A DNA stretch of 64,000 nucleotides from Balanoglossus misakiensis (lineage: Eukaryota > Animalia > Hemichordata). Shown here in pieces: positions 5,191 through 45,200 of the stretch; position 1 is the first letter of the stretch, and the number at the start of each line of letters is the position of its first letter. Made by a program: the position numbers and the translations under genes. The notes below the pieces were generated by a model, which did no database searches, had not been told where the DNA came from, and worked only from the letters and a program-made list of their open reading frames with translations. The DNA is taken from the NCBI GenBank assembly GCA_040954595.2, contig CM082579.2, positions 8,917,625 to 8,981,624 of the forward strand. Reading direction: 5' to 3'.

Positions 5191-19032
<13,842 letters not shown>

Positions 19033-19643: not shown

Positions 19644-22343
19644 TTATAAAAATCCTGTCAAGTCACGTTCTATCGCCCCCGCGCGGAGGAGTTTCAGCAT
19701 GTGCTGTCGTTCTGATTTCCAGTCATGTCCGGCCAGGAACGACGACGACTGAGCTCGCCTTCGAATGGAATAGTAGTGGAACGGATAGCCGGCATGCTGC
19801 CCGAAGCCCGCTACGTCCACGTGGTCGCAGTAGTGGAGGGCGAACGTAAGAGCTATCATCCCGATGGACGGTTTCAACTGTAAACGAGAGACAGAGGCAG
19901 AGATGGAGAGTGGGAGAAGGGAAAGAGGGGTGGTTATCAGTGTAGACTATTAAGAGGCGGGAACCACCAACTGATGAATATTGTAATATGACAACATATC
20001 ATTTTGGCAAGCTGCATGACTTATTAGTTTTTTAGGTATCTTTCCAGAACAAAAATGCCTTGATTCAATTCAACACTTCATCGTCGATGATACCAGCAGC
20101 AATTTTTGGTCTTATTTTATCGTTGCCACATTCATTGGCGAAATATAACTAAACCACAATTTGAATAACGATTCGACAATGAACGATTTAGCGGACATAC
20201 CGGAATGTCTAAGTGTTCCTTTCGGGCGATTGTGAAGATGTGCGGGTGAAGTAACCTGACCCGTTCCCCCGACACGAACCTCTTTGGCACTTTCTTCCAA
20301 TATCTGTTTTCTTGTATGGGCGGGACTCGGCCAGACTGACAAAAACAACAGAACTTAATGACATCAGTACGATCCCCGAATGTTTGAATACATTTACATG
20401 TACATGTAAAGGCGCCTACAGTGCTTATTTGACATTGTTCTGAAAAAAAGAGCATCGAGTTGATTAAGGTAAATCTTGAACGTGCATGTGCTGGTACCGG
20501 TTTCAGTCATATGTCCTTTATCATATTATAATTTAGGATTCTAATTTAATTGATTTTTAACTCCGCACAAGTATTAAAGGACACTGCGACGAATGTATAT
20601 TTCAATCTTACCTTGTTCAGTACGGCATTCAGCCAATCATAATCGGCCTCCTTGTACACGACGAATATGACGTCGGAATCGGATTCGTATTCCCTGACTT
20701 CCGTTAACGCCGATTCTGGATAGAGAAATCGAAATGACGTTTTGGAGCCCACATCGAGGCTAAAATGACGAGTCGGCGCATTGTTCATTCTGTAGTAAAT
20801 AATCATACGTATAGGTCAAGGTTACTGTCACAGTCATTGTGTAATAAACCTGGGGCATCATTTTGATTGGTCGGGAAGCACAATTATGCGTATTATGCGT
20901 GACAATGACTGACCTGATCACTATGTCGTAGCTATCTATCACTCCGCCCAGCCTTTGACCCCTTAGCACACCGGAACTTCCCACAACAACGCACTTTTTA
21001 CAACCAGTTCTGTCGATAAACAACATATTCCGATATTCAGTCATCAACAGGTGATGTAATTGCCAGATAAGTATACCGAGTAACGTCAAACTATGCATCC
21101 TACCCGAATCGATCTGGTTTCTCCACGTTTGGTAGCAGGTCCAGTATGTTATCTAACACACCCAATCCTGACGAAGAAATTGGTCAGAAAATCGCATGTT
21201 ACTCGCAGACCAGATTGGGTTTTCAGCATGGGACGGGTATAGGTTTTCATGTTCACGTTTGCGACATTTCTCTAATTTTGCATCTGCAACCATATAGCAA
21301 GAGCGATGGCCCTTCCTCATCCGGCTATCTAAATCGCTGAAGACAAAGTCTAAGTTTTTTGTATTTCAATAAAGTGCGTGAAAGATATAGAAACCGCCCA
21401 GCCGAATGAATTTGACAGTGACATTGCCTCTGCGTGACAGACCCCTGTCTCTTGACAGCACTCATGAACCAGCCGTCTGTACGCGAGTTTTGGCAAAGAC
21501 GTTCTGGTCCACCAGTCGACGTTTGTGAACTGCATGATTGCTGTTACACTACTTACCGTTGTCATCAACTTCTAAAACCTTCATTATAGAGAAAAGTGCC
21601 TCGTTCCTTTCAGCCTTGAAGTTGTGTGTGACGAACAATGTTTCGTTGGGATTGAAACTGAAATCGTAAAAGTTCGATACAACATGTAGTCATTTACAAT
21701 TTTAGTCTGTTCGCCGATCCACTGCACGACTTGAGCTTGGGGGAGGAGGGCTCGGCGAGAGGGGGGGGGGGCTTTTCTACAGAGTCAAACAATGCACCCA
21801 GTAAATGTTCTTTTAGACATAACAGATCTAATGTACTATGCACAACTCCCTTTAACGGTATAATGTAAGATTTGTCACTTACTCCCCCGAAAAACGCCGC
21901 CTGTCGTAAGATCCATATACTTACGATGGAATAACTTGACGAACTCTTTGGTGTAAATAGTTCTTCCGACAGATTCTCAGCTTCTTCTTTTGGTCTTCTT
22001 CTCTAAAATATCGATAAGCACGAGAAATATATTCTTCAAATTGAATATCGTGCGCTATGCAAAGAAGAAATGCCAAACGTTCCCTTCCCCTACTAGGAAA
22101 CCCCACTCTCTCTGCCACTGAAGGTATGAACCAAATTGCAATTTGTGGGGGGGGGGATACTCACCCTGATAATCCCCTCCTCATTTTAAATACGAACGTC
22201 TCGCTGTCAGCTATGATCGCAGCTATTTTCCGATAAACCACATCTTCTTCTTGCATCCAAATAACCAAATAACAGAGCAGGACAAAGGTGACACAGAGCA
22301 GTGCGTGTATTTTGAATTGACGTCTCCTAAACCGCGCCCTCAT
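19644..22343 (-). CDS. GT29 sialyltransferase, ST3Gal (beta-galactoside alpha-2,3) type, type II Golgi membrane protein
   Basis: N-terminal MRARFRRRQFKIHALLCVTFVLLCYLVIW (basic tail + TM; 22343-22165); stem exons ~22092-21924, ~21657-21557, ~21167-21104; L motif CKKCVVVGSSGVLRGQRLGGVIDSYDIVIR/MNNAPT....DVGSKT (21009-20914, 20789-20612); exon 20335-20201; last exon 19877-19644 with S motif PSIGMIALTFALHYCDHVDVAGF, motif III HYY, VS motif HDWKSE and C-terminus DLTGFL. The exon 1/2 junction is uncertain. Confidence 0.92.
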
Positions 22344-24726: not shown

Positions 24727-27700
24727 ATGGCTCTGCGGCTGACCTCGCTTCTAATCTTCTTCAGTCTGCAACTTTTTGACGCCGTGCTAGGTACGTTGTC
24801 ATCACCCATTTCATCATTGCGTTTATTTGACGTGATATGTAACATTAACACCGATGTTCATATAAGAAATTGAGATTTTTGCGAAGTTAAGAGAGATTTT
24901 TTTTTACTCAAAAAGTCGGCTTGCAGAAGTAACGCATAACTGGACATTGACGTCGGAAGATCCCAACATTTATTGTGTCCAAATCAGTCTAGACGCCTTT
25001 CCAGAAAAGATTCTTCACTCATATTTTATACATTTTAAAGGTGAAAGGGAACGTTTCAAGTTTAAAAAAAATGGCTGTTGTTGTTTTCTAAGCCGTGCAC
25101 CAGCCAAACTTTCTGGATATTTTTCGCACCGTCGACGTCATTGCCTATTTCATAACATTTATCCCTATCGTTCAACCTCAGCTTAGCATTGCGAGTAAAA
25201 GTAACATCCATTTAGAAGTAACTTTTCACATTGTCTGTTTACTAGAGAATTGGCTGCATTGTCGAAATACATTGAGAATTGTTAACCGATACTGCTGTTT
25301 TCATGACCGAGTCAACTGAAAATCAGTGTTTGAATAAAATCCAGCTGTCGCCGCATTTCACTTTGAGATATACATGTAATACTAGTACCTCCGTCGTGAT
25401 AGTATGAATTTCAAAACATTCCGTGAAAAAAATGCTGATCCAGCACATTTGCTAGCCAAGGCAAGCCACGCGTATGTTTTGTCAGACACGGGCTTTCCCC
25501 CACTAACCACAGACAAGGAGGGGAGATTTTGTTTCTCCTAGTCTGATTCATCAACATCAGAGTGACTGTATACAATTGGCCGATAGGTCGCTTGGAGGTC
25601 TTGAGATTGGCCAGGCGACGATAGGGACCGGGGCCAGGCGCAGGTCGTGAATGGTATTAACATCATTCGGTCGGACGAGCGTAATGGGAACTTAACATTA
25701 ATGTAACCATGGCGAGTCAGATAACCTCACGCACACAGCAGCTGAATTAGCAGTAGTACCTCAGCGAAAATCGAGAGCAAAAAGTACAATGGCGTGTCAA
25801 ACGCTGTCGTAAAAGTTGGGCATTAAAAAGTTACAGTGTATACCCGCGATATCATTGGGGCACTTGTGCAGTAAAAAGGAACGATAAAACATACTTCGGT
25901 GCACTAAAAATTAGATTAGTGATGCTATTTATAACTTATGTACTTTGTATTTGGCCATGCTACGGGATTCTAACGTCCCTGAAAATGGTATTCATACTTA
26001 CTGTCCAAACACGATGACACGATCCTGATGATGTTAATGACCATTCCACCCACTTTGGCGAGCGTAAGACAATCAGATAAGTCTTCAGAAATAATGAGTG
26101 TTAACATCACGTGCACCAGATCATACGCGGTGAAGACGGTTTTGGCCAAATTCACTTTCAAACAAGTTGGTTATTAAATTAGCGTATACTGCTTGGTATT
26201 TTCTTGACATTTACCACCATATCAAGCGAATGTAACTTAGTAAAATTGGCCAAGAACGTCCATTTGCAGAATTAGCTCGAATTTCCCCCCAAATGATTAC
26301 GTGTATATAAACGAATAAAGGCATAAACTTAGTGGATTTTCATCAATGTGCCGTGTTAATTTTGATTCAGTGCAGAGACTGAACGGTGTGAAAATGGCTC
26401 ACGTCGTGACTTTTGTATCTTCCAGCGTCGGAGTGCTACTACGATCCCAAGGCCGCCGACTACCACGGGACCGTGTCTCGAACCGTGAGTGGCAGAACGT
26501 GCCAGAAGTGGACGTGGCAATTCCCGCACCGTCACAGCAGGACCAAGGGGAACTACCCGGACTCCTATGTGGGAGACCACAACTACTGCAGGAACCCCGA
26601 TGACTGGGAAACGGCCTGGTGTTACACCACAGACCCGCTTCAGCGATGGGAAGCCTGCGATGTCGGGGAGCCAGAGGAAAATTGCTACTGTGAGTGCGTT
26701 ACTACGTATACTTCTCATATTTGCTCTTCTACCTGTACGTGTATATTAACTGCCTGCGCTGAATTCGTGTCATTTGAAACTGCAACGGCTCATTAATTTC
26801 TTGATATGGCTGTAGCATTAATGATCAGTATTATTTTAGAACGTAAAACATCTAAGTTAGTAAGCTGAGTTTGGGGAAGTTAAGTCCGGCTGATTTTAAC
26901 ATATGTGCTATAGCTTTGAGTTCGATTATCATTCACGATATTGTCTAGGCTTCAAGGCTTCCATTTTTTGGCATATATCACTACATTGCTGAGCTGATTT
27001 GTATTTCAAATCGTTGACTCCAACTGCTAGCAGAGACTGTGACATCGACGATTACTTGAGAATCATTGAACGGCCAATGGGAAATCGAGTTACCAAGCAA
27101 GATGGAGCGTTGTAATTACTATTTAGGGGTCACGGATAAACACAAAAAGGACGTCTCTTTTTGGCATCAACCAAAGAAAAAATACCCACAGAAAAATAAA
27201 CACCAAGAGAAATGCTGACAAACACTGGTAAACAAAAGTCTCTTCTGTTTTTGAAAATCCGGGCAAGTAATTTACGAGGACCACATGTACTGAACAACCC
27301 TTGAATCACGGATACCAGAATGCGCACTTGTGAAATACAAACAAGTATACCATTCAATAGATACACAGGATCATAGCAAGCTGGTCAAACTTCATTAATA
27401 TCACCTTGGGTGCTGAGTTTCGCGAACTCTCTCGCCAGAAAAGTCAGGGTTGTGAACTTGACATTGGGGGCAAGAAAACAAATACATGTAATCTCGTTTC
27501 CGAATGTGAATACCCTTGAGTAAAATTCTGTCGGTTGGCATGCCGAGGTTTACATTTTACCCGCTGATACGCCTCACGTATCGTCAGTTGAATGGACAAT
27601 ATAATACCCATGTATTAAACCTCACAACTTTATCTCCCAAGTTTAGGAAAATCGAAATCGGACTTGCAGAAGTGATAGTTAATTTGGAGTTCAAACCTGT

Positions 27701-29103
27701 TTTCTTCATTACTAAATCAGAGTACGGGGTTTGGAGTCAACAGCAGTGTAAATCAACGATAAAAATAGGTCGTTTGCCCCATCTTGAGACCTTAATGGCA
27801 CTTTTTAGATAATTTGTTTCGTGGCAGTTTGGACAGATATACGAGTGTGGTGTTTACTGTCATGATTTTCATTTTTGAGTCCAGCCACATGTTCGACACA
27901 TATCATGCATACTACTTGTGGTTTCAAGTCCCGAGCATGTGAAAGCAACTGATACGCACCCAATCTGCATAAACAGATCAGACAGACCTGGATTTGAAAT
28001 TGGACCTGCGCGTTGCCGGTTAGCTGAAATCACTGACAGAAGTATGATAGTATATGCTACAAGGGAAAGCGCCCTCGACCCAGTCGGCATTTCTGAAGAC
28101 AACCTTTAGAGATCAAACGGTGGCTCCCATGCAATTTGTATTGTGTGTATTAAATTTCACAACTGTTCACATAACCCCGGACCGGCTCTTTCGAACTGTA
28201 GCTTTAAGAGATTGTGTTACTGCCCTTTCTGCCATCGGCGAGTCGCAACATCTGTTAAGTAAAATAAAAACACGAATAACCGACCATTTGGCAAAACGAT
28301 ACTTAGGATTTCATTGCCCCTGCGCTCAGAGAGTTACAGGGTAGTTTCTTGTTCAAGCATCCCAGAGCTGGCCCTCTTAGAAGAAATTATGTCCATGCTT
28401 GTTCCCACAATCGCGAAGAACATTTTTTTTCGTTCACCACCACTGTCCGCTAAAAAAGAAAGAAGGGACACTTTCTCACAAAACTGGCCAGTGAAAGGAA
28501 TAGAATATTCACAAGAAGTTTGACTCTCAAATGTCACATTTCCTCGATAGGGTGTCTTTTTCCCTTTAGCTGTCAGAGATTGACGTATATGCTCTTCCAC
28601 TGTTTTTTTTTTCAATAGACACTGAGTGTTACTTCAGTAGTACGCAGACTGATTACCGAGGCACCGTGGCAACAACCGCGTCCGGTATCGAGTGCCAGAA
28701 GTGGTCAGACCAGGCCCCCCGCAGTCACAGGTTTATCCCGTCGAAACACCCCGGAAAGGGACTCGGGGCCCACAACTTTTGCCGCAACCCAGACAACGAC
28801 GATGACGGCGCCTGGTGCTACACCACCAACTCCACCGTACGATGGGAGCCCTGTCACCTTGGACCACCACAGATCAGCTGCAACAGTAATAACATCAATA
28901 ATATCAAATAATATAAAGTTATTGTATTTTTATTGTGTTCATGAGTCGATATTTCTCCCCGGTGTGTGTTTTCACTTTCTTTTGGCAAACTATGAAAATA
29001 AAGTACACATTAGACAATGAAATTCTGCATGCGGTTATAGTCATGCATAATATGTATGGTGCAACAATAAAGAAGACGACGACAACAACAGCAAAACAAC
29101 AAT

Positions 29104-29141
<38 letters not shown>

Positions 29142-32100
29142 AACGATAACAACAACAATAACTGTCGCAATGGAACTGGAATATCTATCGCTCAAAACTC
29201 ATTTTACCATAGATCTGACGATATCACTTGGTCCCGTGGATAGAATTAAAACGAGGCGACAAACATCAACCCGATCGTCGGAATCTTCAAAGAGTCACCT
29301 AAAGAATATATAAACGCCCTTTTACTAAAATGCAACACGCTATCAATTTCTTATTTTAGTTTCGGAATGCTTCCATGACGAAAACGGTGCAGATTACCGT
29401 GGCACGAAGAATCGCACGAGGTCCGGATTCCTCTGCCAGAAGTGGACCTCCCAGTACCCCCATTCCCACCAAAGAACGCTGGACAACTATCCGGCCGCCG
29501 GCTTGGGCGACCACAACTACTGCAGAAACCCGGACGATTCAGTCACCGCCTGGTGCTACACAACCACCCGATTCAAACGCTGGGAATACTGTGACATAGG
29601 CCACCGCGGCAGTGATTGTGGTAGGTCGATCACTAGACAATGAAACAGTCACGTTCAGGTGTATTCACACATTGCTGTTCCTACGGCTGAGAACATTTTC
29701 TTCTGCCCACAGCAATCGAGAAAATACATGTAGGGTACCGATACAACTTAAAATGCGATTTGTAATTTTTACATTAACGAGCGTGGTCATTTTGAAAACA
29801 AAAGATAGCTAAAATCTGAGGCAGTTTCATTAGCGTACGAAGTGCATGACGTCAAAAGTTGAATGACACGAATTATGAAAATTTACTTCTGGAAAGTATG
29901 GACATCAGTTAAAACGTTCGGCCTCGGATGCGGGTGCATGTACTTTCTTGATCAATATACTCTCTTCCAAGATGATGTTTGCGACTTTGCAGAAGTCAAC
30001 TACACCGGAGCACGTTCACCTAGTGAGCCCTGTTTCTCGTTTTCGTTCTGTTGCAGGGGAAGACTTGGAGAAACCCGGCACGTGCCCACCTCTCAAACAT
30101 GGCGCCGGCCTGTGCGTCAACGAATGTGCCAACGACTACGACTGCGCGGGACACCGGAAGTGCTGCTCTAGTGGATGTGGACAGATCTGCGTCGACGCTG
30201 GTGAGTATAGTGACCTCACCAGGGCTTCGTTCCACCCCAGTCATTTGTTTCCATCGCACATGTACACTTAAAAGAAATCGTGATACGCTTTGTATGATAG
30301 TTACGACAGCTTGCATCCGCGTGAATTTGAGCCGGGTATCTCAAAGCGTTAACACAAAAAATGAGAAAGCTGGTTTTTGGAAGGTTAATTAAATTTCCTG
30401 TCATTTGATAATTGTGTAATGTTCCCCTGTCTAAGCTTTCAGAAAATATACACTTTTAGGGGATTCTGAACTCCAGAATTGTTAATTTCAAAGAGTGAAT
30501 TTCTTATTCTGCATCCTTAACTGGGTCTTGTTTGCGTTTTCTCTAGAATTGTATCATATGACCAAAAGTAACGAAACAATCGAATGATATCTTATTTTAT
30601 TTTACGTATTCATTGAAACGCATTTCTGCCTAATCGTCAACAGTTGCCCCCGTGGAAAAGCCAGGCAGCTGTCCACTCGTTGACAACGATGCTGACGTCA
30701 CCATATGCGTCCATCTGTGCGATACGGACGATGACTGCCTGAGTAGTTTGAAATGTTGCACCAAGGGCTGCTCCTCTGCATGTGTCATACCGGGTAAGTG
30801 GATAGCTATAGCCCAGCTTACAACTAACTTCGCCCCAAAAATTGTCCTCTCCACTAAAAAACATTTAGAGGACGCGAACTCTACAGGCTTCACATGTCAT
30901 AGCATTAAAAGGTACACGGTCACCTCCAATTTGCATAATGTCCAGAAACTGCAAAAATGGCGTATCCGTGTGTTCTAAAGAACGTATTGCGGCGCTCTTT
31001 TAATTGCGCGTGTGCCTATCCAATGAAAATCCCTGATTGGCTGGACCTGAATTTGCCATGTTAACTGTAGTAAATTTGCATAGGTAACCGTATGTACCAT
31101 TAATTATTGCGAGTGTCTCCCCAAGAACCGATATGTCGACAGCTACAATGTATAGGTGGCGCACTCCGCCAAGGAAGTGGCGATTGCGAATAAAGAGGCA
31201 TTTCACAAAATCTTTTTTTTGAAGCTAGAATATCTTTCACTTTCTGTAGTGGGCGTCATAGACAAGCCGGGAGAATGTCCCAGTATCCGACCCAGGCACG
31301 GTCGGCCCTGTCGCCACGCCAGCCACGAGTGTTACAGCGATGACGACTGCCTTCTGTGGCAGAAGTGTTGTTCCAACGGATGCGGTCACGTCTGTGTAAA
31401 CCCAAGTAGGCTAATTGCATTCATGTTACATGTATTTGTATGATGATAATTAAGGATTCCAACGCACGCGTATAACGAGCTGCCTGCTCGGCTGACCCAA
31501 AGCACCATAAAAGCAACGCTGCTATTATAAGATGCTGCCTTTTTTGCGCCCTGGAAAAGTGATAAGTGTTTTGTACAACAAAAAAAACAACGTTCTTACA
31601 AAAGGGACAATGAAGTTACGTTACTAACCACCTGATGCTAAATTCTTTCTGACAACACTTTGTGTGGCGAATTTGAATTTGAATGTATACATGTATATAT
31701 TGCTATCCGTTGTATTTTATGCATAGCTAAAGCAATGAGGCGACCAGGCGTGTGTTCGGCATTACGTGGCAGGTTGACCGAAATATGCGTAGAGATGTGC
31801 GCAGACGATAACGATTGCGATGAAGGCTTGAAATGTTGTAGCAATAGCTGCGGTGGAAGCGTGTGCATACGAGCAGGAGGCATGTAATTAACGCATCTCT
31901 TTGTCTTTATGATATCAGTCATTAGCGCTGGATTGAATGTTACTATAGTGTCCCGGAATACATGGTTACTTTGCAATAACGAGAATGATATCACGATAAT
32001 GCACGGAACTGCAAAATTTACAAAATGTAGCTTAGTATGCTGTACAACGCTCGCTATCGCACGCACATCTTCAAGTTACTAAAGTACCAAAAGTAATGAC

Positions 32101-35100
32101 TTTGGCCATTTAAAGTAAATGTGTGTTTTGGGGCATTTACACGTGACCGATGTACGTTTGATGCAGGCTCGTCGAGACGTGGAGACGATAAAAAGTGTCC
32201 GCCAGTATACAACGGGACAGCTGGCGTATGTGAAGAGCAGTGTTCTGGTCACGCGGACTGCGAGGGAGACCTCAGATGCTGCAGCAATGGGTGTGGCCAC
32301 GTGTGCGTTTCTCCAGGTCTGTGGGAGTCTGTGTGTCGGGGTTTGGGATTTGGTGTTAGCTCAGCTGGACATTTTGTATATTGGTATTATTTTTGTTATA
32401 AAGACCCACAGTCACTGTGTCATATAAACTTTTAAACGCTCTATTTTTATCATATTGCAATTGTCATTTAGTCAGTTCTGTGTGCCTTTTTATGGCGATA
32501 TCTAGTTGGTTTCTGAATATTGATGTCCGAATTTTCTCTGTGTTTATCCCAACTAATCCAAAACAAAATGAATTATGGACCTTTTCTCACCACGACAGAA
32601 ATCCCGCGACCGAAGGATGGAGTTTGCCCTCGGATACCTGATGGCATCGCTGGTGTTTGTGCGCAGCTTTGTGAAGACGATAGCGATTGCGTCGACAGAG
32701 AAAAGTGTTGCTCCAACGGTTGCGGCTTTAGTTGTGTGAAGCCAGGTACGAAGAATCCCCTATCTGTCTAACTAACACATATACTTTGTCTGACTGTTTG
32801 TATACTAGTATGTATGAAGCAACTCTTACAGTTCAAGCTCCTTCTGGCCATACAATAACAAGATATCACTGCAGAACGTAGGGCCAATTAGTAACGTGTA
32901 TACATGTTAAGAAGTTTCTGTCCAAAGAATAAAGAGTAACGTTGACGCGAGATTTTTCGAAATATCTTTTATCCAGAAATCGAAATAATAGGCTTAATGC
33001 CCAAGCCCGGGCAATGTCCACGCTCAGAAGGCATGATTGGCGCATGCGTCGAGGAATGCTCAAGTGACGAGGAGTGTGACGGCGACAAGAAGTGTTGCTC
33101 CAATGGTTGTGGACATGTCTGTGTCTCGCCAGGTATGCGGAATTTTGAGCGTAATTTTGTAATGTAATATGTTAAAATGTTGTATCATCAAAATAGCATG
33201 AAGGGTCCATGGGTTTACCTCGACGCAGTATGGTAAAACACTAGGCTAGCAAAGGAATTCAAAAGAAATGTCTTCGATGTCGTATAACTTAAATTATCGA
33301 TGCGCTAAGTACATGTACTGTAATATCAGTGGTAGTCCGTTAATAAGCAGGCACCAAACAGTCGCATTCGTCATGTGCATGTTTAATATCATGAGTGGTC
33401 AAAGAGCCTGCCACCATCCGTCGATAGAAGCTTAAATGATCCACATACACAATGTATTGTGGTCTGTACTTGATATGTTGAGATTTTGTATCAGCAAAAA
33501 AAATATTGGCTTATTATAACCAATGTTCTGATTTATAAACGTGAAGGTAGAAGCAAGGCCGACGAAAGTGTGGACTCGTCTCCATCCGACGGCGGTGCGG
33601 AGTGTCCAGTCATACCCGCAGGCACTCTTGGTGCGTGTGTCATTGAATGCATGAGTGATGAAGAATGCCGAGGTGGTCGCAGATGCTGCTACAACGGCTG
33701 TGGGCGGACATGCGTCAATACAGGTCAGAAATCATGCATAAATATGTCTTCCTCTGGTATTGTTTTGTGTTTGGTGCATTGTGATAGCCAAGTTGTGTCA
33801 GTTCTTAAATGATTTCGTCGATGGTGTCAAATCTAATGACCAGAGTTGGACGTTTAATGTATAAGCACAGCATGGGTGGATGACTGTACATCGTATACCG
33901 CTTATCGAAGTTGAGCATCGTGATCTTATAAAAACAAGTTAATACATTTAAGCAGGTGTGGCGAGGGAAATTGAAAGTTAATTGGTGACTTTTCTTTTCG
34001 CACATTCAACCAATTCCCAAATGCCAAAGGAGGACATGACGTCATCGTCGGAATACCACAGAAGTCTGGTCAGTGTCCAGCACCACCAGAGGGCGTCATG
34101 GGCGCATGTGTAGAAGAGTGTTCCAGTGACGAAGAGTGTGACGGTGATAAGAAATGTTGTTCCAATGGATGTGGCCATTCGTGTATTAGTCCAGGTGAGC
34201 ATAATGTATAATTTGCAATAATTAAGTTCGCCAATTTTAAGTTGGCCACTAATACTTTCATTAGAGTAAATGCACAATGTATATCTCAGATGTGCAAATT
34301 AGCATTGAAGTATTCGGTTACAATATGCAACTTACGCGATTTGGGTTTGGGAAAGCTTGTAAAGATCATTTTCTCCCATTTCAGCTGGCCGAGGAGTTGG
34401 TGGCGGGAAAAACAAGAGGGACACGGTCGGTCTGCTCCCCAAGAGCGGGCAGTGCCCCGTGGTTCCCGAGGGTGCAGTGGGCTCCTGTGTTCAGGAATGC
34501 AACAGCGACGAAGCGTGTGGGGGAGATCAGAAATGCTGCTCCAATGGGTGTGGACGTCGTTGCACAAATCCAGGTAATAGAACTAGGTCACGTTCGCGAC
34601 TGAAACGGATGCACTCGCATGGTATTCTGGACTCTAAGTATACATTTAATGCAGTTTGATTAGGAAAATTCATCTTTTAATGGAGGGCATCGCAACAACA
34701 TTCTGATCTATCTGAATGTCTACTTCCCGTACAGCTTTTACGACATCCCTTATCATCTCAAGCAGAGGATTTTGAAATGTTACATAGTTTGTGACAAATT
34801 TGGGTTTAGAACCGTTTTGCCTGAGCAGCTTTTGTGTTCGGTACATTGTTATAGCCAATTTGTTGCAGTTTTTAAACGATTTCGTCGATGGTGTCAATCT
34901 AATGACCAGAGTTGGACGTTTAAGGTATAAGCGCAGCATGGGTGGATGTACATCGTATAACACTAATCGAAGTTGAGCATCGTCATCTTATAAAAACAAG
35001 TTAATACATTTAAGCAGGTGTGGCGAGGGAAATTGAAAGTTAATTGGTGACTTTTCTTTTCGCACATTCAACCAAGTCCCTGCCAAAGGAGGACTTGACG

Positions 35101-38100
35101 TCATCGTCGGAATACCACAGAAGTCTGGTCAGTGTCCAGCACCACCAGAGGGCGTCATGGGTGTCTGTGCAGAAGAGTGTTCAAGCGATGAAGCGTGTGA
35201 CGGTGATAAGAAATGTTGTTCCAATGGATGTGGCCATTCTTGTATTAGTCCAGGTGAGCATAATTAGAATTTGCAATAATTAAGTTAACCAATTTTAAGT
35301 TGACCACTAATACTTTCCTTAGAGTAAATTATGCTATTTTGGGAATCCCACATAAGTCTTTTAAATTGGCCTGCACAATGTATATCTCAGATGTAAGCAT
35401 CAGTTCTGATGAAAATATGGCGGTAGCGTCATTTACGTTACTTTTTGCTGCAATTTCTGTTTTTCTTTCTTTATTTTACCAAAATATTGAGACAAATAAT
35501 GGTAATTGTAAGTATTGCAGAGAGTCACGTTTTGTGGGCTCATCAAATTCTACTAAAATTGTTAAAGAATGAGAAGAAATGCCATTTTTGATGACTCAAA
35601 TTTGTCTCTTCTGACTACAGTTGATGTAGCTGTCGGAATCCCCCGAAAGTCTGGTCAGTGTCCTGCACCGCCTGAGGGAGTCATGGGCGCATGTGTAGAA
35701 GAGTGTTCCAGTGACGAAGAGTGTGACGGTGACAAGAAATGTTGTTCCAATGGATGTGGCCATTCTTGTACTAGTCCAGGTGAGCATAGTGTATATTGTG
35801 GATAATGCCAGTTACATTTGACATTCAAGGAAAACGTCAAGTAAGATGCAGCGGTTAACTTAGAAACATTAACCCAAAACTGAAGTATAGGTGGATGTAA
35901 TAGGCAGAAGATGTTCTAAAGATACTCTCTCTTTATCGTTTCTGGTCATAGTTGCCACAGGAGCAGGCATTGATGCCGCTGTTGGAATTCCACAAAAATC
36001 TGGACAGTGTCCAGCACCGCCTGAGGGCGTCATGGGCGCATGTGTAGAAGAATGTTCGAGTGATGAAGAGTGTGATGGGGACAAGAGATGCTGTTCCAAT
36101 GGATGTGGCCATTCTTGTACCAATCCAGGTATGTGTAAATATAATTGACGTGTTTTTCTTCTAGAAATTTTAACGTTCCCGTCAGTCACTGGTTTTTGTC
36201 TTTAGTTGCTATATTTAGGTATTCCGTATAACCTACATTATGTATGAGATCACGTGGAAATTGTGTGACCTGTCACAAAATATTGGCACTTTTCACACAA
36301 AAACCAGTTACCACCAAAATAAACGTGTCTAAACTATAAATTAAGAAAACTTCACTTTCCGATGTGTCTTTTGTTGCCTCAGTTGTCGTTATGGTTGGAA
36401 TTCCACAAAAATCTGGTCAGTGTCCAGCTCCGCCAGAGGGCGTCTTCGGTGTCTGCGCAGAAGAGTGTTCAAGCGATGAAGAGTGCGGTGGGGACAAGAA
36501 ATGCTGTTCGAATGGGTGTGGTCATTCGTGTACTAGTCCAGGTATGTATGGGTTAACTGACGATTAAATATAAATACCAGTCAGTTTAATTTACATTACG
36601 TTTTTTCTGGTGAATATTATACCATAAAATGAATTTCCTTATCTGAAAACAGCTGTTGACGTCATTGTTGGAATACCACGGAAGTCTGGTCAGTGTCCTG
36701 CACCACCAGAGGGCGTCATGGGTGTATGTGCAGAAGAGTGTTCCAGTGATGAAGAATGTGACGGTGATAAAAAATGTTGTTCGAATGGATGTGGCCATTC
36801 TTGTACCAGTCCAGGTATGTGTTAACCTAATGGATATACTGAGTACATGTATTTTGCTACATTTAGGTACATGTATAACAGGGTGAGTGCCTATATGTGG
36901 TTTCATGGAAATTGTCTGACCGGGTTCAAAATGGCGGTGTTTTGACACAGCAAAACCGGTTACCATTCAAATAAACGTGTCTAAACAAATTAAGAAATCT
37001 TCACTTCCTGATGTTTCTATTGTGGCTGCAGTTGACGTCATTGTTGGAATTCCAAGGAAGTCTGGTCAGTGTCCAGCACCACCAGAGGGCGTCTTTGGTG
37101 TCTGTGTAGAAAGGTGTTCCAGTGACGAAGAGTGTGAAGGTGATAAAAAATGTTGTTCCAATGGATGTGGCCACTCGTGTACTAGTCCAGGTAAGCAAAA
37201 TGTATATTGTGGATAGGCCAGTTAGTGACATTGAAGGAAATCCTAAAGTGAGGTGCAACAGTTAATTGGAAAATATCAATCCAAAGACGAAAATAGGGTT
37301 GACTGTAATAGACAGATGTTCTAAAGATAGACCCTCCGTTATCTGTTTCTGACCATAGTTGCCAAAGGAGCAGGCATTGATGCCATTGTCGGAATTCCCC
37401 GGAAGTCTGGTCAGTGTCCAGCACCACCAGAGGGCGTCGTGGGTATCTGCGCAGAAGAGTGTTCCAGTGATGAAGAATGTGATGGGGACAAGAAATGTTG
37501 TTCGAATGGTTGTGGACATTCTTGTGCCAGTCCAGGTGTGTATGAATCTATTGGATGTGTTGTTTCTAGCAATTGTGACGTTTCCGCCAATCACCGTTTT
37601 TCTTCACAATTGCTGCATTTGGAAATTGTGCGACCGGGCAAAAAATGTTGTCATTTTTCAAACACCAAAACTGATTACCACACAAATAAAAATGTCTAAA
37701 GTAATTAAGATATCGTCACTTACTAATTTGTCTCTCCTGGCTGCAGTTGATGTCGTTGTCGGAATTCCCCGGAAGTCTGGACAGTGTCCAGCACCACCAG
37801 AGGGCGTCATGGGTGTCTGTGTAGAAGAGTGTTCCAGTGATGAAGAGTGTGGAGGTGATAAAAAATGTTGTTCCAATGGATGTGGCCATTCGTGTACTAG
37901 TCCAGGTGAGCATAATGTATATTGTGAATAGGTCAGTAAGTGACAGGGATGACTGTAATAAGCCGTATTGTACACCTATACTGCCGAAACCTATGGCACT
38001 GGTCGTACAATAAGATAAGCTCTCTCTCTCTTTCTTTATCGTTTCTGACCATAGTTACCACAGGAGCAGGCATTGATGCCATTGTTGGAATTCCCCGGAA

Positions 38101-40604
38101 GTCCGGACAGTGTCCTACACCGCCTGAGGGCGTCATGGGCGCATGTGTGGAAGAGTGTTCCGGAGATGAAGAGTGTGACGGTGACAAGAAATGTTGCTCC
38201 AATGGATGTGGACATTCTTGTACCAATCCAGGTATGTGGAAATATAATGGATGTGTTTTTCTTCTAGCAATTTTAACGAATTAAGAAACCTTCATTTTCC
38301 GATGTGTCTTTTGTGGCCACAGTTGTCGTTATGGTTGGAATTCCACAAAAATCTGGTCAGTGTCCAGCTCCGCCAGAGGGCGTCTTCGGTGTCTGTGCAG
38401 AAGAGTGTTCCAGTGATGAAGAGTGTGGTGGGGACAAGAAATGTTGTTCCAATGGATGTGGCCATTCTTGTACTAATCCAGGTAAGATAAATCTAACTGT
38501 AGACACTTAAACGTTTGCCCCGTGCAATTCAATTCGCGATTCGAACTCGGACCCACAGTGCCCTATCACATAGCAAGGTATACTCAACGCGTTCCAACGC
38601 GTCGTTTCAATACTATTATTCTAGGTACATTGGGTATTTTACGCACGATATAATGCTAGTAGTGACTATGCAATAAATACTCATATTCCTTTTTTATCTG
38701 ATTCACCCACAGCCGTGGATGTCAACGTTGGAATACCACGGAAGTCTGGTCAGTGTCCTGCACCACCAGAGGGCGTCATGGGTGTCTGTGCAGAAGAGTG
38801 TTCCAGTGACGAAGAGTGTGATGTGGACAAGAAATGTTGTTCCAATGGATGTGGCCATTCGTGCGTGAAACCTGGTGAATACCGATGTGTTGTTTGATTA
38901 TTTATGTATCTATTGGTTAGGAGCAGTATTCCAGGGCTACTGTTGTCCTTATTTAAGCAATGGAAGACCAGAGCATGAAGTTTCTTAAAAGTATACTCAA
39001 CTCTGGACCATTGAGTACGATTTATCCAGAAGGATGAACTTATAGACAGATCCGTTTTTTTTCTGATTTCTTTTCCGGCAAAAGTTGCAGTCGATGTTGG
39101 TATACCACAGAAGTCTGGCCAGTGTCCAGCACCGCCTGAGGGCGTCATGGGCACGTGTGTTGAAGACTGTTCGAGTGACGAAGAGTGTGATGGGGTCAAG
39201 AAATGTTGTTCCAATGGATGTGGTCATTCGTGTACTAATCCAGGTAAGTGTAGATTCATTCAGGACACCCCATCAAATGTTCGATCTTCCGTGGAAGTTT
39301 TATTGCAAACCACAGTGGTTGTGACTGCGCGGAAGGGAGGCGTGGTAACGAAAAATGCCTTTTAATGGTCAGTTGGTCATCACCCCTCTCTTCGTCTTCT
39401 TAAATCACCCATTCTTCCGCAGACGGAGGACTTGATGTCATTGTTGGAATTCCACAAAAAAATGGTCAGTGCCCTGCGGTGCCTGAAGGTGTAATGGGCG
39501 CATGCGTGGAAGAGTGTTCCAGTGATGAAGAGTGTAACGGTGATAAGAAATGCTGTTCGAATGGATGTGGACATGCATGTTCCAAACCTGGTGAGTGCAT
39601 AAGACGTTCGTTCATCCGCCCTCATGCCAATTTTCAACAAAATTCTGAAGTGGCCCTCTGTCATTATTTTGTGGCTGGAACAACCCTTCATAATTGACAT
39701 CAGTATGTAAATTAAGGATGTCGAGAAATCGTCACAAATCTTTTCATTTTTACATAATGTATATAATAAAATGATGAATGGTGCTTTTAGATGAGAAGGT
39801 TGGGAAGAATTTTAGTCTTTGCTAATTGGGAATGCAAAGGGCTATAAAAATAACTTCAATATCTTCACAATGTTTCAGCCAAGATATGACCTTGTCTAAA
39901 AACTATATCAGAGAAAATTACAAATTATTCACAAATTATTAATTGGTATATGAAATGCTTCCGCAGTTTTTTTCAAATTTACTAGACCCAGAAATGACCT
40001 TGACTTGCCTGTTTTTGTCCTGATTCCACTACAGTTGAAATCATTGGCGAGTGTCCTGTAGTGCAAGAAGGTGTCATGGGCGCATGTGTGGAAGAGTGTT
40101 CCAGTGATGAAGAGTGTGGCGGTAAGAAGAAATGTTGCTCGAATGGATGTGGACATTCGTGTACAAAACCTGGTAAGTCAGCAATATGCCGAATCTGCGC
40201 AGCGAAGGACATTGCACTCGCATGAGCATGTAAAAAACGGGGATTGAGATTCCATCCATCTTCATTAACTCTCAGGTCTTATGCATTTAAGTGTCGTAGA
40301 TCTTTCACCAAGCATATGTCCATGAGCGTATGCTCGTGTCCTGTTTCGCACAAAAGTCGTATGTGATTTGTTAAATAACTAGTGAATCGAACTGGACACG
40401 ATTTTTTTTTTATGTTGGTGTTATTGTTGTTTGGTAAAGTTCTGTTGTAGATACTCACACATCAGCTTATTTTTTTATTTTTCAGTCACAGCCTATAATG
40501 GTGCAGGTATGTACTTTTTAAATTATACTGTCCTACATACATACATACATACATACATACATACATACATACATACATACATACATACATACATACATAC
40601 ATAA

Positions 40605-40635
<31 letters not shown>

Positions 40636-41255
40636 CATACATACATACATACATACATACATACATACATACATACATACATACATACATACATACATAC
40701 ATACATACATACATACATACATACATACATACATACATACATACATACATACATACATACATACATACATACATACATACATACATACATACATACATAC
40801 ATACATACATACATACATACATACATACATACACTCATTCATTCACTCATTCATTTCTTTCAATGTGTATCATCGATACTGAATATTGTTTTATTCTGTC
40901 TTGCAGACGCTTTGGCAGCAAACAAAGCCTCATCAGACAAGGGATCTTCCAAGTTTGTCACAACCGTAGTTGTGGCAGTTTTTGCTGTCATCGCCCTGCT
41001 GGTTGCCATTGCCGTCATTGTCATTCTTTTACGGAGACGCCGCACGTCGAACAGACAAGATAACACCAACCAAGAAATTGGGTTTGTATATACCAATTGC
41101 CGGAATATAATGCAATATAGTTTGCTTTGTGCGTGAGTCATAGTAATCTTATATGTTCGCCCATAATTTAAAGATGACGAAGTTTAATTTTGTTCGCTTT
41201 TTCTTTTTCGTGAAACAGCATGGAAAGCAAGAGGGGTGATAGCAGTGCTCAGTAG
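24727..41255 (+). CDS. Type I membrane protein: signal peptide - 3 kringle - 24 WAP (four-disulfide core) domains - TM - short tail
   Basis: Signal exon 24727-24790 ([21 protein letters not shown]); kringle exons 26426-26689, 28619-28885, 29360-29620 (each CQKW...HN[YF]CRNPD...WCYTT...RWE.C); WAP exons starting at 30057, 30644, 31250, 31727, 32167, 32599, 32977, 33547, 34030, 34385, 35089, 35621, ~35952, ~36383, ~36653, ~37032, ~37359, ~37747, ~38055, ~38323, ~38713, ~39084, 39423, 40035 (C..C...C..D..C....KCC...CG..C); 21-nt exon 40486-40506; TM exon 40907-41081 ([26 protein letters not shown]); last exon 41219-41255 (TAG). Domain exons are phase 1-1. Confidence 0.9.
29075..29160. repeat. 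Imperfect (ACA)n microsatellite
   Basis: Direct reading; source of the poly-Cys and poly-Leu ORFs on the minus strand. Confidence 0.95.
33778..35394 (+). repeat. Recent ~0.5 kb direct duplication of an intron+WAP exon+intron segment (33778-34293 vs 34846-35394)
   Basis: Near-identical non-coding text in both copies (GATTTCGTCGATGGTGTCAA...TAAAAACAAGTTAATACATTTAAGCAGGTGTGGCGAGGGAAATTGAAAG...), with one ~45-bp indel. Confidence 0.9.
40534..40832. repeat. (ACAT)n microsatellite, ~300 bp, one interruption
   Basis: Direct reading; source of the MYVC-repeat ORFs. Confidence 0.98.
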
Positions 41256-42283
41256 AAAGTTTCCCTCAGAAGTAAGTCTTTTAATTAAAAATACAGTACA
41301 GTGTGCGTTCGGAAGGATTGTTATTGTTTGTTGCTCTCTTCATGTTATTCTGCCCGGTGATAGTTCGGAGCACTCGTTGTGACAGGCAACTGATTCCACG
41401 ATTGCTTTACCGTGGCCAGGAGGCTCGAACAGCGTTTTTGAACCCACTTTTCGAATCATTTATTGACAGGTACCTGAGGTTTGCAAACGATTGCGAAGAT
41501 TATTTCCGGACCCAGTGCTATTACATAAGTAGACCCCGAGATCCTTGGGAAGTCTCCATTTCATTTATCTTGGCAAGACGTTAGACTATCATAATAAAAC
41601 ACTTCAATCTTTACTTTCGTTTTTACTGGCCCACAATACCGATGTTCGTTGTAGTTTACAGTGAGGTACCAAAAGCTGATAATATGCATACATGTACATA
41701 CGCTTGTCTGTAGGACAATATTTGTAAGAGTAGACACACCATATACTTTAACTTGCCTCCTTTTATGTTTGTATACTTTAATGTTATTATTAGATTGGTA
41801 AACGAGAAAATTTTACAGCTCACAGACAAGACCTGAGTTGTTTATCATGTTAGTATAATATAAAATGTTTACAAAATAAATAATTGCTTGAATTATTCAC
41901 GAAATTGGTGTCTTATTTCAAACCCCGAGGTTCTTTCCACTAATTAAAGTTATGTTCGGATAAAATTGCTAAGAAGAAAATTTGAGGTCTGGCGTAGCAT
42001 AAGATCATTAACAGGTGTTGCAGCGTTAATATTCCATATGCCTGCCTGCCTACTGTACCTTTAATATTTTGAGGAAACGTTTTCCTACAGTGTTATGTTT
42101 AACCAAGCAAACAACGACGTTAAAAGGGAGCTATTGCTCAACACAGGCAATGGAGATGACAGACAGAAGAGTAAGCATAACATTTCAATCAATGCATTTG
42201 AAATTGGGTAGAACAGCACACTTTGGTAGTATCCCAACTTGAATGGACTCCACATCAAACCCGTCGACAATGAGTCACCCAGA

Positions 42284-45200
42284 TCACTTCCCAGATAACC
42301 ACTTGGTGCAGGCCATGAATCCAACGGCAAGCGCTGTTACTGCGAGGACAGAGACGATGCAACCGAGAACCACCAGTGAAACGTGGCTGTCCTGCTCTTC
42401 AGCAAATGGTGCAGTTTCTGGTTTGCCTAATTCGGGGAAAAAAAACAGAAAAATGTTCAGTATCGCCAGCCATTGAGTCTTTGCTTCGCTTAAACGTTAC
42501 TTTATGAAAATTCCACGCGGCAAGCTGGTACTACGGCTTTCGCCACCCCCACCCCAGCCTATGGTACTCGGTTATGGATATGAAACGCACAGTTTATACC
42601 TCTGCGCCATTAGTCTATGACACTGGTTGCATTGCTATTTTAGGTAGCAAACTAAAAGGTACGAGAGATTGCAATCTAAAACGATATCTGCCATGATATA
42701 TATGTCACACTTAGGGCTGGGAGATCATGTCATTCGTTCAGGCTAGAGAAATAATTAAATTTACATTACCACAAATACTTGCTACGTCATCAATTATGGA
42801 AACGGCGTAAAAATCCGCCTTGGTGAATAAGGTCCAATAAATTAATTCCCCACATCCGTTGTCCCGGCAGTCATTTGCCAAACTTTGCACTTCCGTGTCA
42901 CCGAGCATGCGCGAATACACATTGAGGAATGCTAGGGCGCCGTGGAAGCCTCTTGCACGTACAAACGTCAGGCGTTGGTTGTATTCTTGTCCGAGGAGAA
43001 TCGTTCCCTTTTTGGCTATCACCCTCCCCTTGGCGTGTATTAGATCATCCTGGAAAACTAGTTTTGAGTCCAGGAAAATCTTCAGTTGGCCGCCTTCACT
43101 GGCCCAGGCGACACACACGTGGTGCCAGTGGCCATCGGCGATTTCCACTCCCTTCGACAGCTCTAAACTCTGACCCAGCTGCAGAAACAGCCCATAGCCG
43201 TGCTTGAGTTGTCCAATGGACAAGACGATCGCTCTCGATTCTTGGGGTGTGTGGTAATGAAACAGTGTTCCGAGACCGTCCACCTCACTGGGCTGCGTCC
43301 ACAAACAGACGGTGAACTCGTCGACTTCGTCTGGGAAAATTGATTGTCGAATGACGTATCCAGTGCCATTGAAATAGAGTGACTTATCCTGAAGTTCCCC
43401 GCGTGTGCAATGAGGACTTGGTTCTGAAATGACACCAAAGACAGTCTCGTTTACGTTCACAGAACCATATATCAAGCCGATGACCATGAACACTACATTC
43501 ACAATACAGGGCTAAGATTGATAGGCATAACAAGTCGATATTACCCTTAATGCAACTGTCAGACCACCACGACCCTTAGGCGAAAATCTATGACGACTTT
43601 GCTCGATCTCACTGTATAGTAAATTGTAATGCACAAATTGCTATCTGTGGAAGAAGCCTCACACAAAGACAGACGTACGGATTGAGACGCCAAGATTGTA
43701 CAATACCTGTCGAAGATGGAATGTGTGCTGTGGTACCGTTTTCACTGGTGGCGTGGCCAGATGGATAACCTGATGATGATTCTGTTGGTCATAAGCGAAG
43801 CAGAAATTACTACACCTAAATTTAACATCTGTTATACAATGTCTTCAATCTTAGCACATTGACATAATTTTTTAACCTCGGACAAGAATATTGTGTGATC
43901 AAGAGGACGCTCTATTGGACAATAATTGCAAAATGTCGTTTTGTAATAGTTTGAAATTTATTTTAAATTTGAAAAATGGCAAATTCCTTTATATTTCTTT
44001 TACAGTTTACACCGCAATTTTAATCGAATCCAAACAGTGATATCAGTTGTGTGATGAGTGTTGATTTACCTTTCACTGTTGTTGTCTCGCGTATGTCAAC
44101 AGGTTTCCTCTTTGATGTTGGAACTTCTGTAATAATACATAAATAAATATGCGAGCAATAGTGCCCCGGTATTTAATTGATTTCTGTTATTGCCTATCAA
44201 ATATGTTTTTGTTTCACCAATTGCAACCCCTGATCGCCATGGTTTTAGCAGCTAGACAAAACCATACATGATAATGAAAAATGCATTTCTTTAAGAAAGG
44301 GATGGGCCGGTTTGTATTACAAATTCAAAAGACTAAAATTACAACACCGTACCTGTTGCTCCTCCTCTTCTTGTTGGCGTTCTTTCTGAGGTGTATTGTG
44401 CCGTGGGTGCTCTTGTTGGAATGGAGACTGGAGTTGGCGAATTCCAAAATAAAATGCAAATATAGTTTTTATCAGCTACGCATTAAAAGTCACAGAATTA
44501 CATAAGCACAACTTTGGGTAATCAATCAATCGTGTAATCAACCAAACCATCCATCCACCCGTCCAAAGTCAAAGGCTTCAACTATGACATGGAAACATGC
44601 TGTTCAAAACTGTTGAAATCACAATTTCGGTTGTAAAGTGAGCATTTCCCTTTTAATTTTCATACATATTAAACACAAATGCACAGAACAGCCCAGTCAG
44701 ATGATCAACATCGGAACACACACCTCAACCCACACTCTAAACCGCGGCAGCGAAAATACCAGTTCAATGCTGATCCTTACCCGGATTATCACACGCATGC
44801 CCACATCCATTAGGACAACATTTTTGTTTTCCCGGACAATCTCCATCGCTGTAACACGCCTCCTCACATAGACCAAATGTGAAGTCAGCAACGAATGGAC
44901 ATAGACCAGGTTTGTCTTCTGGTTCAACTGTACATTTGTATGACATTTACAAAATAATCATTGTTTCTTGTCAAAATATTAAATTGTGAATGTTCAGTGT
45001 CGTTTTCAATACTTGTATTCATGACAGTGTCTGTCTGTCTGTTCACTTGTCCATTCAACAATAATCCATCCATCCAATCTATCCATCAATCCAGTCTCCC
45101 AAAGGCAGACAGACAGACAGACAAACAGAGCCTCATCCATATGTCTTAAAATCGGTAAATAACAAGTCGGAATATACTTGCTGGTTTGTCGCCAGTTAAA

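Follow-up and report, generated by a model that had tools for sequence, protein, structure and literature searches.

Kremen1 and Kremen2 are non-catalytic type I membrane proteins with an N-terminal kringle, and a glycosylphosphatidylinositol (GPI) anchor can replace their tail for Wnt antagonism (PMC5014086). In plasminogen kringle 1, lysine analogues contact Asp55, Asp57, Arg35 and Arg71, and Tyr72 lines the pocket (PMC9736318). The 6/8 spacing of the first three cysteines of WAP domains (Cys1-2/Cys2-3) is reported as critical for inhibition; among human WFDC domains, only SLPI domain 2 and elafin have it (PMC11408880). The antibacterial action of these two proteins is ascribed to their cationic charge, +12 for SLPI and +3 for elafin (PMC11408880). 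The WAP domain of anosmin-1 modulates FGFR1- and heparan-sulfate-dependent function and helps to bind FGFR1 (PMC3580776). The locus described here lies in a stretch of 64,000 nucleotides (nt) of the acorn worm Balanoglossus misakiensis (assembly GCA_040954595.2, contig CM082579.2, positions 8,917,625 to 8,981,624 of the forward strand), hereafter the window. A plus-strand gene within it is predicted to code for a type I membrane protein with three kringles, 24 WAP domains, a transmembrane (TM) segment and a short tail.

A six-frame scan of the window for cysteine patterns located the motifs of the three kringles and 24 WAPs at 26434-40162, and splice-site mapping placed their exons at 26426-40172. 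Splicing of 31 exons yields a single open frame of 1,651 amino acids (aa) with 210 cysteines, which begins with an ATG at 24727 and closes with a stop codon at 41255. The predicted order is signal peptide, three kringles, 24 WAPs, TM segment and a 28-aa tail. All three kringles score above the curated cut-off of Pfam PF00051 (E 3e-21 to 8e-25), as do 24/24 WAPs for PF00095 (E 1e-9 to 5e-15). Each of the 27 domain exons is phase 1-1, with eight cysteines per WAP and six per kringle. The initial annotation had described this architecture with one domain per phase-1 exon, and splice mapping together with Pfam (27/27) confirms it. The annotation was also right that a catalytic domain is absent, as the exon chain holds only kringle and WAP domains and ends with the TM segment and tail. 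It put the tail at ~27 aa; the model gives 28 aa.

The TM exon has a hydropathy peak of 3.5 followed by four arginines, a stop-transfer pattern, and the predicted signal peptide in exon 1 was called by hydropathy only. The tail contains neither tyrosine nor dileucine. Donors were scored with a matrix built on this gene's own sites, and the weakest belongs to the kringle 2 exon (-2.0 vs 2.3-13.8 for the other 29). WAP4 has no in-phase GT donor and requires a GC donor, and the acceptors of the WAP8, WAP9 and WAP11 exons are weak. A TACA microsatellite of 300 nt (40534-40833) occupies part of the intron preceding the TM exon. Just 16 nt past the stop there is a strong donor (41271), and an in-phase frame of 72 codons with an NPxF-like motif follows at 41364-41581; a frame of this kind arises from 3% of non-coding starts (419/13,820). 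The donor and frame could reflect an intron in the 3' untranslated region, a tail that was shortened recently, or chance. A longer tail through this frame is possible and would need stop read-through or a weak acceptor; the Glandiceps relative described next backs the short frame.

Two acorn-worm models bear on the integrity of the gene, and the expectation of relatives in ambulacrarians was borne out by them. In Saccoglossus kowalevskii, A0ABM0M9L3 (P0123, 579 aa) combines a signal peptide, a kringle and eight WAPs. Its kringle pairs with kringle 1 (Shimodaira-Hasegawa-like approximate likelihood-ratio test, SH-aLRT, 81), and its first WAP clusters with WAP1 (support 85), together with seven WAPs of another Saccoglossus protein. 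These links are weak; the WAP and kringle trees are quick searches on few columns, and supports of 81-92 lie under the tool's bar of 95. The Glandiceps talaboti model XP_077983615.1 (P0096, 1,232 aa) has a signal peptide, 20 WAPs, a TM segment and a tail, and it is the best match for WAP7 and WAP9-24. Its tail aligns to that of the window protein with a score of 57, reached in 0/2000 shuffles, whereas 11 other tails gave p values of 0.07-0.84. The TM exon matches P0096 at a BLASTP E of 0.076, which is not significant alone, and at a tblastn E of 4e-4; the latter value and the shuffle test link the tails. P0096 is likely the orthologue of the stalk and TM part. Both halves of the gene are therefore echoed, in separate acorn-worm families, with the N-terminal junction seen in the Saccoglossus model and the C-terminal part in Glandiceps. 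From these alignments and the continuous frame, the kringle-WAP and TM exons very probably form one gene.

A locus that makes little or no full-length product is improbable, with the exons divided between two genes or read mainly as shorter products such as a secreted two-kringle protein and a kringle-less WAP-TM protein. Such products would fit the region 28885-29071, where read-through of the weak kringle 2 donor meets a stop after eight codons and AATAAA occurs at 28997 and 29066. They would also fit a signal-peptide-like phase-1 mini-exon with a good donor at 35417-35507, in the intron between WAP11 and WAP12, and the secreted kringle-only and kringle-less WAP-TM models found in relatives. 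However, one mini-exon compares with 0.83 in shuffled introns, and an internal start there was rejected as being at chance level. AATAAA is found 13 times across the gene span, and Saccoglossus has the kringle-WAP junction. The 436-nt intron that leads from kringle 3 to WAP1 has no AATAAA and no signal-peptide-like exon, so that neither a start nor a poly(A) signal separates the two parts.

No description of a protein that combines kringles and WAPs was found in the literature searched, which covered few subscription journals and no supplements. The main texts of two hemichordate papers (PMC11175523, PMC13554239) do not contain 'WAP' or 'kringle', and their supplementary gene tables could list such genes. 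A profile search with the 24 WAPs gave 355 proteins at E <= 1e-20; among the best 120 of the 355, the Glandiceps protein was the top match and the Saccoglossus protein was the only one with a kringle. When 1.84 billion representative sequences were searched exhaustively with the profile, 3,184 matched at E <= 0.001, and a second kringle-WAP case is absent among the best 150 of 3,184, a result that may miss kringle proteins with few WAPs. Among the 444 proteins retrieved, WAPs occur in 229, kringles in 216 and both in one; a kringle-WAP protein with a TM segment was found in 0/229. Searches with kringle 2 and kringle 1 (95/107 and 147/151 matches passed; 95 and 120 listed) gave no kringle-WAP protein among the matches listed, an absence that is weak evidence because they covered proteins of up to 2,000 aa and also missed the true relative P0123. 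A metagenome scan was uninformative, with 78 loci of 1-5 WAP exons, none with a kringle, and a best identity of 66%. The best identity of a window kringle to database proteins is 69%. An ESM Atlas search with residues 24-300 of P0123 gave no feature match, and structure matches were just to separate kringle or WAP families. With one kringle-WAP case in 229 WAP proteins and no description found, the view that the combination is unusual holds up. It is present in the Saccoglossus database model under a misleading name. Papilin is defined by thrombospondin and Kunitz domains. The 'papilin-like' BLAST label of P0123 was rejected, as the Pfam domains of P0123, like those of the kringle-WAP gene exons, are limited to Kringle and WAP.

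The WAP count itself is not extreme, contrary to what had first been proposed. Database models reach 35 WAPs in the clingfish Gouania and 23 in the whipworm Trichuris, and Glandiceps comes near with 20 and a TM segment. Three uncharacterised catshark models of up to 6,215 aa (P0336, P0446, P0449; XP_038629981.1, XP_072333681.1, XP_072333680.1) have 36, 45 and 80 WAPs by profile and 47, 60 and 116 by pattern. By the rule applied here, a downstream hydrophobic segment is present in 25/229 WAP proteins, a few of which are probably false or GPI signals, and their highest WAP count is 20. The 24 WAPs of the window protein are the highest membrane-anchored count seen here and no record for the domain.

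Other acorn-worm models show pentraxin-WAP-TM, WAP-lectin-like-TM and four-kringle architectures, the last with or without a TM segment, which indicates that kringle and WAP exons have been freely shuffled in the group. The lectin-like domain of P0213 and P0381 was read from sequence, and in P0213 it falls under the Pfam threshold used. The statement that kringles usually accompany proteases or receptor kinases is weakened by Kremen1/2 (PMC5014086) and by two of these acorn-worm models, the four-kringle-TM Glandiceps P0220 and the secreted four-kringle Ptychodera P0470. The window protein is a new architecture made from known parts, in animals rich in mosaic proteins.

The WAP stalk grew by duplication. 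WAP9 and WAP11-24 are 15 near-copies with 72-95% nucleotide identity and no identical pair. The ratio of nonsynonymous to synonymous substitution rates (dN/dS) is 0.12 across their 105 pairs, which are not independent and exclude WAP10 (scored singly). The corresponding ratio of proportions of differences (pN/pS) is 0.11-0.23 for each of WAP9-24. WAP9 and WAP11 with their flanks are 91-93% identical, and the introns WAP8-9 and WAP10-11 share 91% identity over 267 nt. Two intron types alternate further along (12-13, 16-17 and 18-19 vs 13-14, 15-16, 17-18 and 19-20), with 74-92% identity over matched parts, which points to the copying of a two-exon unit. The near-copy exons are tandem duplicates under purifying selection, with their introns copied along, and not a product of assembly collapse or duplication. 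The reading of the high count as an assembly artefact or as dead pseudo-exons is largely refuted and retains very little probability. It could draw on the similarity of WAP9 and WAP11 with their flanks and on the three weak acceptors, but no copies are identical, their homologous introns have diverged, and all keep the eight cysteines, the frame and a low pN/pS; Glandiceps has a similar array. The WAP tree contains species-specific blocks of 15 rows for the window (support 91), 11 for Glandiceps (90), five for Saccoglossus (92) and 17 for Patiria (98), which suggests that stalks expanded or were homogenised separately in each lineage. Variation of stalk length by exon skipping, as allowed by the symmetric exons, is possible; the change of length actually shown is tandem duplication.

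The chemistry of the WAPs differs from that of the classical inhibitors. Their Cys1-2/Cys2-3 spacings are 10/3 (20 WAPs), 9/3 (two), 11/3 (one) and 10/6 (one). Over their 1,265 aa, the WAP exons are acidic, at a net -86, as are the Glandiceps (-111) and Saccoglossus (-47) proteins; a cationic antimicrobial WAP would have a positive charge. The closest sequence in the PDB to the WAP profile is anosmin-1 (E 2e-13), followed by elafin and SLPI (3e-7). The AlphaFold model of WAP17 has a WAP core with a predicted local distance difference test score (pLDDT) of ~80 and a disordered linker (residues 1-13), and its top fold matches are omwaprin, SLPI, anosmin-1 and elafin, none at E <= 0.001. A tethered protease trap, in which kringles would recruit substrates or zymogens and WAPs would inhibit the protease, was one of the functions first suggested. 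The WAP fold is common to elafin and SLPI, and anosmin-1 binds urokinase-type plasminogen activator (PMC3580776). Nevertheless, the elafin/SLPI-type 6/8 spacing is found in 0/24 WAPs and the array is acidic, which disfavours the trap, and the 15 near-identical loops offer no spread of specificity; we regard it as unlikely.

The simplest reading is that the array is likely a beads-on-a-string spacer. A tentative alternative, to which we give a small but real share of the probability, is that the array itself is a multivalent acidic surface for a cationic ligand such as a growth factor, an antimicrobial peptide or calcium/mineral, with the kringles being optional. Each copy is under strong purifying selection, Glandiceps retains a 20-WAP-TM protein without kringles, the closest solved sequence, anosmin-1, has a WAP that participates in FGFR1 binding (PMC3580776), and a WAP-domain protein occurs in the Patiria skeletal proteome (PMC5460417). 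On the other hand, the ligand is only a proposal and the number and type of repeats vary freely between species. In addition, WAPs recur in combination with different heads (kringle, pentraxin, C-type lectin), which is the pattern expected of a spacer.

The kringles differ in their predicted binding capacity. Residue numbers were mapped from the alignment of kringle 2 to plasminogen kringle 1 (PDB 1CEA), which is gapless in the pocket region; kringle 2 keeps Arg35, Asp55, Asp57 and Arg71, and has Trp at 72. Kringles 1 and 3 have Arg71 and Trp72 and lack Asp57, so the pocket set is complete in kringle 2 only. Asp55, Asp57, Arg71 and an aromatic residue at 72 occur together in 1/26 hemichordate, 0/13 echinoderm, 0/31 amphioxus and 17/40 vertebrate plasminogen kringles examined, that is, in 1/70 other invertebrate deuterostome kringles. 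The window kringles group with ambulacrarian kringles, apart from those of plasminogen (SH-aLRT 94). According to PMC6337849, a true plasminogen activation system is absent below vertebrates, where only proteases with 2-3 kringles are reported. Kringle 2 possibly binds lysine.

Taken together, these features suggest that the protein is a surface tether or co-receptor without catalytic activity, mounted on a flexible WAP spacer, a function to which we assign about even chances and which agrees with the earlier proposal of a stalk bearing kringle heads. The whole exon chain would be one mRNA. An extracellular protein is the likely ligand of the three kringles; kringle 2 may recognise lysine, for example at the C termini of cleaved matrix or mucus proteins, and the other two kringles would have different targets. 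The 24 acidic disulfide-knotted WAPs likely form a flexible, protease-resistant spacer that holds the kringles off the cell, with a reach of roughly 60-100 nm if extended, estimated from the size of a WAP module (~3-4 nm per repeat). The short tail likely only anchors the protein, which would not be a signalling receptor and would work in the manner of Kremen, a kringle co-receptor that has no catalytic domain and does not need its tail to antagonise Wnt. The stalk grew by tandem copying of exon plus intron, probably separately in each acorn-worm lineage.

Several points, besides the limits given above for the trees and the paired dN/dS values, weigh against this interpretation. The gene model is based on genomic sequence and homology alone, with splice sites chosen at homologous positions. 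No homologue shows kringle, WAP and TM jointly, as the Saccoglossus model ends at a WAP and that of Glandiceps has no kringle, and both are themselves gene models. A passive spacer might not require constraint as strong as a dN/dS of 0.12 (eight of the ~43 positions per WAP are structural cysteines), and the value could reflect binding by the WAPs. A sea-cucumber antistasin/WAP inhibitor shares the short Cys2-Cys3 spacing, which speaks against a firm 'no' on inhibition. Confidence in the WAP17 model, which covers a single exon, is moderate (mean pLDDT 66). Kringle 2 has Pro at position 74, a site that is Tyr, Phe, His or Leu in 40/40 vertebrate plasminogen kringles; no donor in the gene is weaker than that of its exon, and the lysine pocket is missing from the Saccoglossus kringle. 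Together, these last three points indicate that lysine binding is not a conserved trait.

A more speculative extension, which we consider doubtful, is an undescribed acorn-worm family of modular receptors with interchangeable heads (kringle, pentraxin, C-type lectin) on fast-evolving WAP stalks, maybe tuned by exon skipping. This member would be an invertebrate lysine-binding kringle receptor that catches clipped proteins tens of nanometres above the surface with a plasminogen-style pocket and no protease. The locus would present WAPs by the dozen at a cell surface, probably non-inhibitory, and so bears on the role of most WAP domains. Should kringle 2 bind lysine, a hemichordate membrane protein would carry a plasminogen-type pocket, a matter relevant to the time of origin of the pocket. 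Amplified-exon mosaics are common in these animals, and nothing suggests new chemistry.

Table 1. Features of the kringle-WAP gene (window positions)
Feature	Position	Strand	Support
Exon 1, ATG, predicted signal peptide; donor in phase 1	24727..24790	+	
Kringle 1, Asp57 to Trp; 63% identity to Saccoglossus P0123 kringle	26426..26689	+	Pfam
Kringle 2, Arg35 Asp55 Asp57 Trp62 Tyr64 Arg71 Trp72 kept, Pro at 74	28619..28885	+	Pfam
Kringle 3, Asp57 to Ser	29360..29620	+	Pfam
WAP1	30057..30200	+	Pfam
WAP2	30644..30793	+	Pfam
WAP3, sole WAP with 6 residues Cys2-Cys3	31250..31405	+	Pfam
WAP4, inferred GC donor 31880	31727..31879	+	Pfam
WAP5	32167..32316	+	Pfam
WAP6	32599..32745	+	Pfam
WAP7, repeat type of the expanded block	32977..33132	+	Pfam
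WAP8, weak acceptor	33547..33723	+	Pfam
WAP9, recent duplicate of WAP11 including flanking introns	34030..34194	+	Pfam
WAP10	34385..34573	+	Pfam
WAP11	35089..35253	+	Pfam
WAP12	35621..35779	+	Pfam
WAP13, long-linker type	35952..36128	+	Pfam
WAP14	36383..36541	+	Pfam
WAP15	36653..36814	+	Pfam
WAP16	37032..37190	+	Pfam
WAP17, long-linker type; structure predicted	37359..37535	+	Pfam, AlphaFold
WAP18	37747..37905	+	Pfam
WAP19, long-linker type	38055..38231	+	Pfam
WAP20	38323..38481	+	Pfam
WAP21	38713..38874	+	Pfam
WAP22	39085..39243	+	Pfam
WAP23	39423..39590	+	Pfam
WAP24	40035..40172	+	Pfam
Predicted 21-nt micro-exon, phase 1-1	40486..40506	+	Strong splice sites; without homology support
TM exon, basic stop-transfer residues, first tail part	40907..41081	+	Matches Glandiceps P0096
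Last coding exon including stop codon	41219..41255	+	
First AATAAA past stop, candidate poly(A) signal	41593..41598	+	

The neighbouring genes include a second WAP mosaic. Tail-to-tail with the kringle-WAP gene, the minus strand holds a gene at 42287-55928 with a pentraxin (55212-55928), seven WAP exons (44781-49009; motifs from 48983 to 44791 in the six-frame scan) with Thr-rich linker exons, a second pentraxin (42741-43511) and a TM segment (~42290-42430). It matches Ptychodera flava XP_070554200.1 with 71% identity in the first pentraxin, 55% in the second and 57% in the TM segment, and in the WAPs as well. This match points to an enteropneust hemichordate, and the best kringle identity of 69% to one outside the annotated species. 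The Ptychodera model has five WAPs vs seven here, so that WAP number varies there too. C-type lectin exons (Pfam Lectin_C, 51934-52951, plus strand) lie inside the long intron between its first pentraxin and first WAP, and are likely a nested gene. Upstream, a plus-strand gene with NIDO, TIG, AMOP, VWD and Sushi exons (7469-18224) is presumably SUSD2-like, judging by its domain order. Glycosyltransferase family 29 (sialyltransferase) exons at 19647-21152 on the minus strand are head-to-head with the kringle-WAP gene. An LDL-receptor class B (YWTD) exon at 62484-63047 on the plus strand belongs to a gene that runs off the window, and a TCAT array of 134 nt is located at 57773.

Compared with known systems, the window protein as predicted resembles Kremen1/2 in the features given at the outset, but these have a rigid kringle-WSC-CUB unit, no WAP and no long stalk (PMC5014086), and there is no sign of orthology. 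A Kremen identity was rejected, as only kringle and WAP exons were found and WSC-CUB is not in the chain. Plasminogen kringle 1 and apolipoprotein(a) share the lysine-pocket residues kept in kringle 2 and the tandem kringles, but plasminogen is secreted and has a protease domain; the plasminogen/HGF/apolipoprotein(a) family was rejected because the exon chain has no C-terminal trypsin-like domain. The receptor kinases ROR and MuSK were rejected as well, as the tail has no kinase and the next gene, ~1 kb downstream, is on the opposite strand. Elafin (WFDC14) and SLPI (WFDC4) share the WAP four-disulfide core but are small and cationic, with 6/8 spacing. The WAPs of the window protein are acidic with ~10/3 spacing, nearer to anosmin-1, which has a single WAP with fibronectin III domains. 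Saccoglossus P0123 has a similar acidic WAP array, with a homogenised distal block and short Cys2-Cys3 spacing, behind a signal peptide and a kringle; it differs in having one kringle, without the pocket, and eight WAPs plus a broken one, with no TM segment seen. Glandiceps P0096 has the same repeat type, TM segment and homologous tail, but no kringle, its own repeat clade (a separate expansion), a Gly-rich juxtamembrane segment and a longer tail. Further ambulacrarian models, all uncharacterised, have 3-17 WAPs and no kringles; they include Ptychodera XP_070554200.1 (pentraxin-WAP-pentraxin-TM), Ptychodera XP_070535890.1 and Saccoglossus XP_006811188.1 (WAP-lectin-like-TM), Patiria XP_038066487.1 and Asterias XP_071785268.1. 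Like the window protein, they combine a WAP array with a TM segment and a short tail, and several carry a recognition domain.

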